Source: a virus (Duplodnaviria; Heunggongvirae; Uroviricota; Caudoviricetes). Taken from it: a DNA stretch of 52,839 nt. Of this stretch, positions 3,001 through 6,000 are shown piece after piece. The position numbers are program-made. The stretch lies in IMG/VR virus record IMGVR_UViG_2880372215_000003; one strand, written 5' to 3'. Each line of letters opens with the position of its first letter. The stretch's first letter is position 1.

Positions 3001-6000
3001 GCGCATCTCTGCCTGAATTTCGGGCCATTTGGCACCAGGCTTACATTTATGCTTAACCCACCCGATGGCATGCAGCTTAAGCTCCGGATACATAGCGTTA
3101 ACTTCTGGCATTTTCATCAACGCTTCAACGATATGGCCGTCGAATGTTGCCATGTCTTCCTGCAACAATTCCTGTGCGCTAATCACCATATCAACAGTGA
3201 TGTTTTCACATGTGTCGAACTTAACCATGACAGCGTTCTGTACTTCAGGGGCCAGGTTGTCAAAAGTGACGTTCATCGGATCGGATTCAGTCTCGACCGG
3301 GACAAAGGAAGCAGACGCCTCATCCCAGCGGTTTTCCTGCATATATTCAGCATCCCAGGAATCGAGGGCAGGGCGGGGTATACCGGGTTTATCCTCGCAA
3401 ACAAGAAATTTATAAGCGCAGTCCTGAGCAGCCGGATAATGTTCCAGGAATTGCCAGTGAAATTTTGCGCGGGCGCGACGTTCATCACCGGCTTCAATGG
3501 CAGTGGCTACAGCGACGGCACCTTCTTCCTTTATTGCCTGTTCGTCCGGAATGGCGGCGCAAATAAAGACTTTACTCATTTTGTTTTACCTCATTACAGA
3601 TTTAAGGGTGAACAAATCCCTGCCATTGCTGGCATATAAGAATGAAATCGGATGTTTATTACGGAACTGTTTTAAAGACCTGCCGGGATTTCGTTATTAT
3701 CCTGGTGAATAACTTTATCGACCGGGTAACAGTTACCGGGAATTTTCTGTTCGGTTGCTGCAGTCACACACTCCTGCATTGTCCTGTGAACACTGACTGC
3801 AATATCAACTGGCTCTCCGGAAACAAGAAAAACTGTCAGAACAAGTGCAAATGCTGTATTCATTGCCAGCATCCTTTTTGTATCGGACGTAAACGGGCCA
3901 GCATTGAAAGAATGCATATTTTATTTAATAGCTCCCGTTCGTGTTTTCTCTTGTTAATGGCATCTTCAGTAAATACAGGGTTACTGATAGTGACACCAAT
4001 TTCAAAACAACCTTCAGACGTATTAACGTTTGGTAATAACGTTTCCATTATCGCGTCCTCAACAATGAATTTTGTGATGCGGTGCCTGGTGCCTCCAGGT
4101 GACGTTAACCAGTTAACAATTAACGCCGGATACAGAGAATCCCCCCATAACACTGTTTTTGGTTTTAACTGTTCCGCGTGCGCTCAGCCGCATTCACCGC
4201 ATCACAAAATTCACTTTAAAAAGGGCGGCAGAGCAGTCACGGAGTAAAACTGATACCGCCAAACGTCACCAGAAAATTGATAACAGAGGGCGTTGCAGCG
4301 GGGTTGTCACTTAAGCGTATGGTCAACCTGACAACCCGGTGTCCTCAACGGGGGAAGGAATAACCCCTCCATACTTACCGCCGCGCCATTTCGCGGATTG
4401 CCACAACCGGAAGCGCACGGTCGACGAAAATTTAACGACAGGCTATCTATGAACCAGCTACCTCGCCGTGCGCTTTCGCGTTATGGTCTGACTTTTCAGG
4501 GAAATATCCTTTCAGTAAACTGTCAGTGCCGTATGCTCACCCGTGTCCGGCGCACGCACTCCACCTCACCCGTGGAGAACTCCTTAATTACCAACCTTAG
4601 CTTCGTTGGTTAGCTATTAACGCGGGTATGTAATCATTCTGGCAATGCTTAATGCCGCTGCTTTTTCCAGATTGGTGATATCCTGCTCCAGAGCGGACAG
4701 ATTTTCAGCCTGCTTAGCCCTGGCTTCATTGGCCCATTTCAGATCCTGCGCTGCATTAATTTTCTGGTGCATCCACTCATAAAGTTCATCATCGGTATAG
4801 TCTGGCGCGATGATGACGGGTTCTCGTTTCTGCATGTCGGCTCCTTGTGGTTAGCGTTGCCTGCTTTTAACCACGTCAGGCGAGGTGGTATCCTCTGAGG
4901 GGTCTGTTACTCGAGAGGAAATTGGTTATGAATACAATCAAGTTTTCTTGCCCAGAATGTGGTGGCGAAGTCTTTGACACATCCTTTAAGCCGCAGGGCT
5001 CTGACAGTTTCGCGGGAGCCATCTGCAAAAATTGTGGTCACCTTGTAACTGAAGATGAGTCCTCGCAGTTCGATGACGAAATCGTTGACAATATCTTCGG
5101 TGCACTCACCAGAGACTTTCTGAAGTAAAGGCGCATACCGCTTAGTTACCGCTCTGATAACTCTTACCTGTCCTGCAATGGCGCTGATGTCAATATAAAG
5201 CGCCATTGCTGCTTCTTTGCCGATCCCGGGATGCCTTCCATTCTGATGTTTGACTTCGCCCACTGAGAAACCCTCTGTTTCCCCTTAACGCCGGGGTAGC
5301 GGAACAAAAAACTGCTGCATAGTTATTAAAGTTGAACCCTGCCGTCATGTTCATACGCCTCGGGCTGGCTACTTAACCCCTGACCACTGCCGGGTAACTC
5401 GAAGTATTTCCCTGCGTTCTGTGGGGCGGGGTGGGTTGGTATTTTTAGTTTAATAAACATTAAACTTAAGTCAAGTAAAAACTAAACCGCGGGACATAAC
5501 AAACACAACGCTTTTGATAAAGTCGTTGCGGTTGTTATGTTTCTATTGGTAGTGAAAGTTAGGGAAACTGGCGTCTTGCGTGGATCACGTTTACTACTTC
5601 AACGCTTGATGTTGTTACGCGGTATAGAATTATATAGTTAGGGTGGGCTACAATCTCACGCAAGCCAGGTACTCTGTCGCTTGGTGGGTATAAATACGGA
5701 TGTTCGGATAACGGCAGCACACAACCCCTTAATCGCTGCCATAAGCGTTCAGCCGCATCTATGTCGAAACGAGCAATATAACTAGTTATATCATCTAGGT
5801 CGGTATCTGCGCTTTCAAGCCATAACACGGGTAACATTTTACTGCTTGCTCCGTTCCTTGCGCATCTTAGCAAAGCGTTCTGCCATTCTGCGCTCAACTT
5901 CGTCATGGGGAATTGCTGGGCGCGGATCTGCAAGGCTCGTTGCTACTTTCGCACGCAGCCATTCGTTGTAACTGTTTTCTTGTTCAATGGTTTCAAATTC

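Follow-up and report, generated by a model that had tools for sequence, protein, structure and literature searches.

Introduction

The dicBF operon of the Qin prophage of Escherichia coli K-12 carries the genes for DicF, a small RNA (sRNA) that represses ftsZ, xylR, pykA and manX (PMC5069750, PMC10448788, PMC6832061), the division inhibitor DicB, which works via MinC and ZipA and also blocks ManYZ (PMC6832061), and YdfD, a lysis protein that inhibits IspG (PMC8835842). DicF derives from the dicBp transcript, and primer extension, Northern blotting and reverse transcription PCR gave no promoter within the operon (PMC10448788). RNase E and RNase III process the polycistronic transcript, and DicF binds Hfq (PMC5069750, PMC10448788); the terminator sets the end of its 53-nucleotide (nt) form, and RNase III cleavage downstream has been proposed as the source of a 72-nt form (PMC5069750). 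Here we compare these and related systems with a stretch of 52,839 nt from a tailed virus (Caudoviricetes; IMG/VR record IMGVR_UViG_2880372215_000003), referred to below as the window, which carries a dicBF module on its minus strand.

The module is also known from enterohaemorrhagic E. coli (EHEC). PMC7873438 describes four dicF copies and activation of pchA by DicF, and reports induction of DicF at low oxygen, citing Melson and Kendall 2019. A second described system is the immunity region of prophage CP-933P of strain EDL933, to which prophage Sp12 is identical (PMC8630535). Its proteins PaaR2, YdaS and YdaT are analogues of CI, Cro and CII, and the locus is bistable (PMC8630535). The right operator (OR) region has been mapped by DNase I footprints (PMC8630535), and the structure of YdaT and its DNA site have been described (PMC9986795). 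Beyond parE2 there is a third promoter, PL933P; its −35 and −10 elements are identical to those of PR933P, it has three operators, and it is repressed approximately 100-fold by PaaR2 or YdaS (PMC8630535). As detailed below, we consider it highly probable that the window holds the Sp12 copy of the dicBF module, placed in an early-left operon at the Qin locus, which we infer to be transcribed from PL933P and which would act through the downstream steps known from K-12.

The dicBF module of prophage Sp12

The stretch carries the known ydfC-dicF-dicB-ydfD division-inhibition module that E. coli O157:H7 harbours in Sp12/CP-933P, a cryptic lambdoid prophage. Positions 1–12000 of the window were 100% identical, over their full length, to many O157:H7 chromosomes, including that of strain Sakai (NC_002695.2, 2243081–2255080), where this interval is annotated as ‘prophage Sp12, lambda-like phage’. 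The genes of the window map one to one onto the Sakai list from ECs_2275 to ECs_2287. The module comprises the following features:

4617–4835, minus strand: ydfC (72 amino acids), 98.6% identical to K-12 ydfC
4276–4616, minus strand: ydfC-dicF spacer, 97.1% identical to K-12, with a fold more structured than shuffled sequences (z −2.6); K-12 processing data are in PMC10448788
4223–4275, minus strand: dicF sRNA gene (53 nt), assigned by Rfam RF00039 and K-12 identity
4049–4222, minus strand: dicF-dicB spacer, a structured leader with a closing duplex of about 21 bp, 98.3% identical to K-12
3860–4048, minus strand: dicB (62 amino acids), encoding in K-12 a MinC-dependent division inhibitor, assigned by Pfam PF05358 and NCBIfam
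3672–3863, minus strand: ydfD (63 amino acids), Pfam DUF1482 at 88 bits, 93.7% identical to K-12 in amino acids and 97.4% in nucleotides

All four genes are intact, and the presence of the module is far beyond chance. The original prediction, made from sequence without database searches, had placed ydfC, dicF, dicB and ydfD on the minus strand, and each gene was recovered where it had been proposed by Rfam, Pfam, NCBIfam or identity to K-12. It had also named the result that would overturn it, the lack of a significant DicF or DicB match; both matches were clear. An Rfam scan of the whole window returned RF00039 at 4223–4274 with 76.7 bits (gathering score 48; E 3e-15), covering the full model from 1 to 52. 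The 53-nt dicF of K-12 aligned without a mismatch (53/53) at 4223–4275, including the single-stranded 5′ targeting region, and a shuffled sequence gave 0 matches. The terminator hairpin and UUUUU run at the 3′ end of DicF are intact, and the gene lies between ydfC and dicB. Neither the Rfam scan nor a search with the K-12 sequence revealed a second dicF copy in the 52.8-kb window. For DicB, the full-length Pfam PF05358 match scored 127.4 bits (cut-off 27) and the NCBIfam model NF049927, CellDivInhibDicB, 132.7 bits (cut-off 100). The protein is 88.7% identical to K-12 DicB (93.7% in nucleotides), seven of its 62 residues being different.

The Qin and Rac regions of K-12 were compared with the window by BLAST and global alignment. 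Positions 2813–4835 matched the Qin interval from ydfC to ydfE at 96.1% DNA identity, in agreement with the Qin-type operon originally proposed. By segment, identity was 98.6% in ydfC, 97.1% in the ydfC-dicF spacer, 100% in dicF, 98.3% in the dicF-dicB spacer, 93.7% in dicB, 97.4% in ydfD and 94.9% in the first 768 nt of the adjoining exonuclease gene, so that the left arm overall is 93–100% identical to Qin.

Chromosomal site and distribution

The left end of the window places the prophage on the host chromosome:

1–93, plus strand: 5′ fragment of the host gene rspA, found by six-frame translation of open reading frames (ORFs) and marking the chromosomal junction
55–764, minus strand: integrase pseudogene, with broken ORFs at 58–264 and 594–764, Pfam Arm-DNA-bind_2; Sakai ECs_5736, intR pseudogene
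784–1035, minus strand: excisionase, Pfam DUF1233 putative excisionase at 108 bits; Sakai ECs_2287

In K-12, the annotated order at the int end of Qin is intQ-ynfP-rspB-rspA. With this order as reference, the rspA fragment followed by the integrase remnant indicates that the prophage occupies the Qin locus. At the identical locus of O157:H7 strain TR01, an incomplete D-altronate/D-mannonate dehydratase gene (‘starvation-sensing protein’) adjoins ynfA. We also observed that rspB and most of rspA are gone from positions 1–764, the 93-nt rspA remnant lying beside the integrase pseudogene. The integrase gene is both truncated and frameshifted, which leaves the prophage without an intact integrase gene; Sp12 is thus presumably fixed in place.

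This decay raises the question of whether the prophage is dead and the module merely one of its silent relics, with no present function. In addition to the broken integrase, the ydaW-like gene described below is frameshifted, the exonuclease gene next to the module is split by the insertion sequence IS1203 in some strains, and PL933P is strongly repressed by PaaR2 (PMC8630535). We nevertheless regard a relic as very improbable. All four module genes are intact, and dicF does not differ from its K-12 counterpart, which is functional. Of 5426 complete E. coli genomes, 2708 contained the module at a coverage of at least 80%, the median number of places being two per genome. Regulatory roles of EHEC DicF copies have been published (PMC7873438). 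Finally, the CP-933P switch is bistable (PMC8630535), which implies that some cells are derepressed.

The surrounding arrangement is less common than the module itself: at least 80% of the 12-kb arrangement (positions 1–12000) was found in only 292 genomes. The 1.44-kb module matched annotated O157:H7 genomes at 100% identity. In the middle of the window, coordinate offsets relative to individual O157:H7 strains imply insertions or deletions of about 350–400 bp. The Sakai record names ECs_2283 (ydfC), ECs_2284 (‘cell division inhibition protein’), ECs_2285 and ECs_2286 (‘exonuclease’) in the leftward part, and ECs_2279 (‘CI’), ECs_2278 (‘Cro’) and the replication proteins ECs_2276 and ECs_2275 on the other side.

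RNA structure of the spacers

The sequences flanking dicF are 97–98% identical to those of K-12, where processing and Hfq binding are known. The dicF-dicB spacer was predicted to adopt a multi-branch fold with a z-score of −4.3, and none of 200 shuffled sequences was as stable. Its duplex of about 21 bp, whose distance from DicF suits the end of the 72-nt form, is of the kind that RNase III cuts, and the predicted structure at 4049–4222 is therefore a probable RNase III substrate.

The same spacer is covered by an Rfam STnc100 match at 4016–4225 on the minus strand (E 1.9e-6), which, with 39.7 bits, stays below the gathering score of 47. A full STnc100 match of 93.4 bits was observed in the late region, at 15235–15406 on the plus strand, upstream of a nanS-p-like esterase gene. 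Both matches have in common the motif CACC(N)GGAGGCACC(N)GGCACC. Instead of a free-standing sRNA, STnc100 may represent a structured leader or an RNase III site that recurs in phage operons.

The immunity region and a predicted PL933P site

To the right of the module, the window encodes an immunity region with the following features:

5447–5474, minus strand: PL933P promoter, TTGACT-16-TAAACT with an operator half-site, predicted by promoter scan
5559–5837, minus strand: parE2 toxin gene, Pfam ParE_toxin at 60.8 bits, PDB 5cw7/5cze at E 7.6e-60; Sakai ECs_2281
5839–6030, minus strand: paaA2 antitoxin gene, Pfam PaaA2 at 70.7 bits; Sakai ECs_2280
6051–6422, minus strand: paaR2, CI-analogue repressor gene, PDB 7nkv/8c3k; Sakai ECs_2279
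6435–6519, no strand assigned: OR operators with PRM933P and PR933P, the PR hexamers lying at 6462–6491 on the plus strand
6520–6822, plus strand: ydaS-like gene for a Cro analogue, Pfam YdaS_toxin at 46.5 bits and HTH_3; ECs_2278
6819–7244, plus strand: ydaT-like gene for a CII analogue, Pfam YdaT_toxin, PDB 8bt1 and 3c4r at E 7e-93

Near-identical sequences of PaaR2, YdaT and ParE2 exist in the PDB as crystallised proteins; residues 1–71 of PaaR2, for example, match the ‘Phage repressor protein CI’ of entries 7nkv and 8c3k at E 5e-41. Judged by these matches, the region is the published paaR2-paaA2-parE2/YdaS/YdaT switch, with the repressor, antitoxin and toxin of the three-component toxin–antitoxin (TA) system all encoded. 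The original prediction had recognised an immunity region here, which stands, and had overlooked its PaaR2-PaaA2-ParE2 identity, which became apparent from Pfam, the PDB and PMC8630535. Neither DicA/DicC nor ydfA-ydfB could be assigned: no match to DicC, YdfA or YdfB was found, and the C-terminus of PaaR2 resembles DicA only weakly (28.6% over 70 residues; 28 bits, cut-off 101).

The promoter scan detected identical TTGACT/TAAACT hexamers at 6462–6491 on the plus strand and at 5474–5447 on the minus strand. A 12-nt block, TACTTGACTTAA, is common to the OR and left operator (OL) sites, and the heptamer ACTAAAC occurs four times in the 52.8-kb window, each time at OL or OR. On the strength of the shared hexamers, the shared block and the confinement of the heptamers, we take 5447–5474 on the minus strand as PL933P, a predicted site that matches the description in PMC8630535.

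From PL933P to ydfC

The predicted promoter points toward ydfC, which lies about 600 nt away. Three features were recorded in between:

5280–5442, minus strand: leader downstream of PL, 87% identical by blastn to Rac DNA upstream of ydaG
4922–5128, plus strand: ORF of the ECs_2282 family with a CxxC zinc ribbon, NCBIfam NF047912 at 57.2 bits (cut-off 37), annotated in Sakai RefSeq
4907–5263, minus strand: ORF of 118 amino acids that fully overlaps ECs_2282 in antisense and is annotated in phage Evi

A consensus scan of the minus strand from 5447 to 4835 found no terminator-like site. Together with the orientation of PL933P toward ydfC, this positions the module like kil of lambda. By analogy, the module would occupy the kil position of lambda and, in Qin, the position that dicBF holds relative to dicBp (PMC10448788). 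Most likely, then, it sits in the PL933P operon that is repressed by PaaR2 and YdaS; that the transcript reaches dicF and dicB in the Sp12 copy is what we infer from this arrangement.

Several points weigh against this. The terminator scan was a simple consensus search that failed to flag even the terminator of DicF. The approximately 600 nt from PL to ydfC are untranslated, or contain a doubtful ORF, and run antisense to ECs_2282; Rho-dependent termination or transcriptional interference could therefore stop the transcript. According to PMC8630535, the ORFs that come directly after PL933P have no assignable function, and the transcript was not traced there to dicF or dicB. In addition, DicB activity is assumed here for a predicted protein that differs from its K-12 counterpart at the seven residues mentioned above.

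The ECs_2282 ORF runs antisense to the PL transcript and is the one of the two overlapping frames with a family match; for the 118-residue ORF, no match was found in Pfam, NCBIfam or the Qin and Rac proteins of K-12. Its start matches the start position of ydaG and ydfA relative to a conserved Shine-Dalgarno block. We also considered the leader at 5280–5442 as a structured cis-acting RNA, such as a put-like antiterminator of HK022, and rejected this candidate, as its fold was no more stable than shuffled sequences (z +0.8) and it had no Rfam match at E of 1 or below; the HK022 record itself annotates no put site. This leader resembles Rac even though the two prophages have unrelated repressors and operators.

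Right upstream of the ydfC ATG (100 nt compared), the DNA, about 98% identical to Qin up to this point, drops to about 50%, and the blastn match to Qin stops at 4835, locating a mosaic joint at about 4836. Since 50% is no better than unrelated sequence, we interpret the ydfC start codon as a recombination joint; the mosaic nature of the early region, which had been suggested from the sequence alone, is thereby borne out. The joint also bears on a different source of dicF and dicB transcription, namely an oxygen- or growth-phase-responsive promoter within the module, for example upstream of ydfC, dicF or dicB, which would make these genes independent of the PaaR2-controlled PL933P. A joint exactly at the start of ydfC means that the module has moved among different upstream regions, which counts in favour of this reading. 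The induction of EHEC DicF under low oxygen (PMC7873438, citing Melson and Kendall 2019) points the same way, as does an older study that proposed a promoter upstream of dicB, which PMC10448788 mentions. In K-12, however, primer extension, Northern blotting and reverse transcription PCR located no such promoter (PMC10448788), Sp12 and K-12 share 97–100% of their sequence between ydfC and dicB, and our consensus scan of the minus strand from 4835 to 4049 found no promoter-like site. We therefore consider an internal promoter quite unlikely and retain transcription from PL933P as the preferred reading.

Proposed expression and function

If PL933P drives the module, transcription would start at about 5440 on the minus strand, some 600 nt upstream of ydfC, under repression by PaaR2 and YdaS. 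The 3′ end of DicF would be formed by the intrinsic terminator hairpin, giving the 53-nt form, or by an RNase III cut in the long duplex of the spacer, and read-through would produce an mRNA for dicB and ydfD. Together with Hfq, DicF would pair with the ftsZ, xylR, pykA and manX mRNAs, leading to their repression, and with the pchA leader of EHEC, leading to activation. DicB would bind MinC and carry it to ZipA at the septum, so that Z rings would be blocked, and would also prevent ManYZ-dependent entry of phage DNA. YdfD would act as a lysis protein by inhibiting IspG.

The window itself provided the parts and their arrangement, the motifs of promoters and operators, and the RNA structures as predicted. 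The activity and repression of PL933P and the bistable switch come from the literature on Sp12/CP-933P, and RNA processing and targets from that on K-12 and EHEC. The downstream steps are borrowed from Qin of K-12, to which the stretch of ydfC, dicF and the spacers is 97–100% identical.

A further suggestion concerns regulation. Control of dicBF in Sp12 may belong to PaaR2 and YdaS rather than to DicA and DicC, in which case the bistable, heritable switch would set apart a subpopulation of O157:H7 cells that makes DicF, DicB and YdfD from this copy, provided that the transcript extends that far. We put this forward tentatively, as a possibility that we hold with less than even confidence. If true, a prophage switch stabilised by a TA system would be linked with cell division, with the exclusion of phages that depends on ManYZ and, by way of DicF and pchA, with expression of the virulence genes of the locus of enterocyte effacement (LEE). 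In the literature that we consulted, the link from the switch to dicF and dicB is not made.

The exonuclease gene

Downstream of ydfD, the left arm continues with a single long gene:

1108–3579, minus strand: ‘exonuclease’ (823 amino acids), an uninterrupted ORF; Sakai ECs_2286

The match to Qin stops at 2813, where IS2 truncates ydfE in K-12, and the 823-residue ORF thus shows ydfE as it was before truncation. The full-length exonuclease described at the outset is indeed uninterrupted over 1108–3579, K-12 ydfE being its IS2-truncated remnant. Residues 1–256 are 96% identical to K-12 YdfE. Residues 262–625 align with residues 278–591 of RecE, its non-catalytic part, at 38% identity, and the C-terminus (residues 642–813) carries the Rv2179c-like DEDD-type 3′-5′ exonuclease domain PF16473 at 222.7 bits. 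The protein does not belong to RecE: the NCBIfam exodeoxyribonuclease VIII model gave 273.8 bits against a cut-off of 1269, and only residues 262–625 align. It is a chimera in which the DEDD domain replaces the RecE nuclease domain. The nearest solved structure, 8kel, was a weak match (E 2e-5). No recT was found between the exonuclease gene and xis, either in the ORF list or in the Sakai annotation. In some strains, the gene is split by IS1203.

Replication genes and mosaicism

Beyond ydaT, the early region continues on the plus strand with replication genes:

7252–8229, plus strand: O-like replication initiator gene, HTH_36
8236–8976, plus strand: DnaC/IstB-like ATPase gene, 79.3% identical to YdaV in amino acids over its full length
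9002–9771, plus strand: frameshifted ydaW-like gene in two overlapping ORFs, 9002–9181 and 9103–9771, Pfam DUF1627 at 332 bits

The cro-like, YdaT-family, O-like and DnaC-like genes that had been anticipated beyond the repressor were thus all present, at 6520–6822, 6819–7244, 7252–8229 and 8236–8976. The further claim that this right arm is Rac-like held for part of it. A comparison of 6819–8976 with YdaT, YdaU and YdaV of Rac gave 79% identity to YdaV, 30.6% to YdaT and a match to YdaU confined to the last 19 residues of the O-like protein; K-12 YdaU is annotated as DUF1376. The two parts of the ydaW-like gene, which is also annotated as ‘frameshifted’ in TR01, are 80% and 47% identical to Rac YdaW, the N-terminus being the part at 80%. 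The Cro-like protein is 39.7% identical to Rac YdaS over 58 residues, the YdaT-family protein is 35.8% identical to Qin YdfX over 95 residues, and PaaR2 had no match to RacR. PMC8630535 gives 26% and 31% identity between CP-933P and Rac for YdaS and YdaT. With only YdaV and the N-terminus of YdaW close, the early-right region does not qualify as Rac-type.

The original prediction read this arm as acquired from a Rac-type prophage, which would make the early region a recent recombinant of Qin and Rac. In favour of this stand the order of the genes (repressor, ydaS, ydaT, initiator, DnaC-like and ydaW-like, as in Rac), the similarity of YdaV and the YdaW N-terminus with 72% DNA identity over 8193–9459, and two short Rac-like patches of DNA at 4064–4228 (80%) and 5280–5442 (87%). 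A DNA identity of 72%, however, does not speak for a recent exchange. The repressor is unlike RacR, YdaS, YdaT and YdaU are as distant as described, and the YdaT-family protein is no farther from Qin YdfX than from its Rac namesake. Farther to the right the window becomes Qin-like again, with a DUF968 protein 83% identical in amino acids to YdfU, and with hokD. A recent Qin and Rac recombinant therefore seems unlikely to us, and the same observations fit ordinary shuffling among lambdoid phages, of which phage Evi, combining the same immunity region with Kil, is an example.

Other observations in the window

At the Qin-like right side we found a complete hok/sok type I TA system, with Rfam sok at 11120–11294 on the plus strand (116.9 bits) and a hok ORF at 11232–11444 on the plus strand. 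The hok coding sequence is near-identical to Qin hokD; K-12 is without the upstream sok/mok part and has relE there instead. Three tRNA genes lie at 14210–14456 on the plus strand, downstream of the Q antiterminator gene (Ile-CAT, Arg-TCG and Arg-TCT in Sakai). The interval 42000–52839 contains genes for tail fibres and for type III effectors of the nleG family, along with several insertion sequences (ISEc8, IS630). From the Sakai map, the dicB region of the neighbouring prophage Sp11 was expected near the far end, which instead consists of insertion sequences and nleG genes. A self-comparison of positions 1–12000 with the rest of the window gave no matches.

Comparison with known systems

Reference genomes already annotate this locus, and experimental work has been published on its immunity region as well as on DicF, DicB and YdfD; it matters little as a discovery. 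What the analysis yields is a corrected map, in which the locus appears as the positional counterpart of Qin with a PaaR2/YdaS/YdaT immunity region and a partly Rac-like replication module, and a sharp recombination joint at the start codon of ydfC. It also leaves a modest testable idea, that the bistable PaaR2 switch may, via PL933P, control this copy of dicF and dicB in EHEC.

No difference between the window and Sp12 of Sakai was detected across the 12 kb examined; dicF is not among the features listed for Sp12 in the Sakai RefSeq record. The Qin dicBF operon (ydfA-ydfB-ydfC-dicF-dicB-ydfD-ydfE) shares the locus, gene order and strand. Its ydfA, ydfB and DicA/DicC have no counterpart in Sp12, where ECs_2282, PL933P and paaR2-paaA2-parE2 replace the head of the Qin operon upstream of ydfC. 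Moreover, ydfE is truncated by IS2 in Qin, whereas the Sp12 exonuclease gene is intact.

In Rac, the genes racR-ydaS-ydaT-ydaU-ydaV-ydaW follow the same order as in Sp12. The layout of kilS-kilR resembles that of dicF-dicB, with a terminator-ended sRNA, a structured spacer of about 170 nt and a small division inhibitor; the terminator hairpin, the U-run and the spacer (about 80%) are homologous, whereas the body of the sRNA and the inhibitor protein differ. Rac carries RecE and RecT, whereas Sp12 carries the exonuclease with a DEDD domain and no RecT.

Phage Evi (LR597642.1, 4119–7352) combines a paaR2-type immunity region, without an annotated parE2, with the 118-residue ORF and ydfC at 98% identity, and a Kil gene takes the place of dicF-dicB-ydfD. 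The phage collection showed the dicBF module in many temperate Escherichia phages and Stx phages. This pattern is ordinary shuffling of lambdoid modules. With phage lambda, no sequence similarity was found in the searches made, nor was an N-like gene noticed in the interval from PL to ydfC. Sp12 follows the logic of cI-rexA-rexB, PL and kil: accessory genes come after a leftward repressor gene, PL with its operators is found to their left, and the PL operon includes a division inhibitor (PMC8630535), the accessory genes being rexA-rexB in lambda and a ParE-type TA pair in Sp12.

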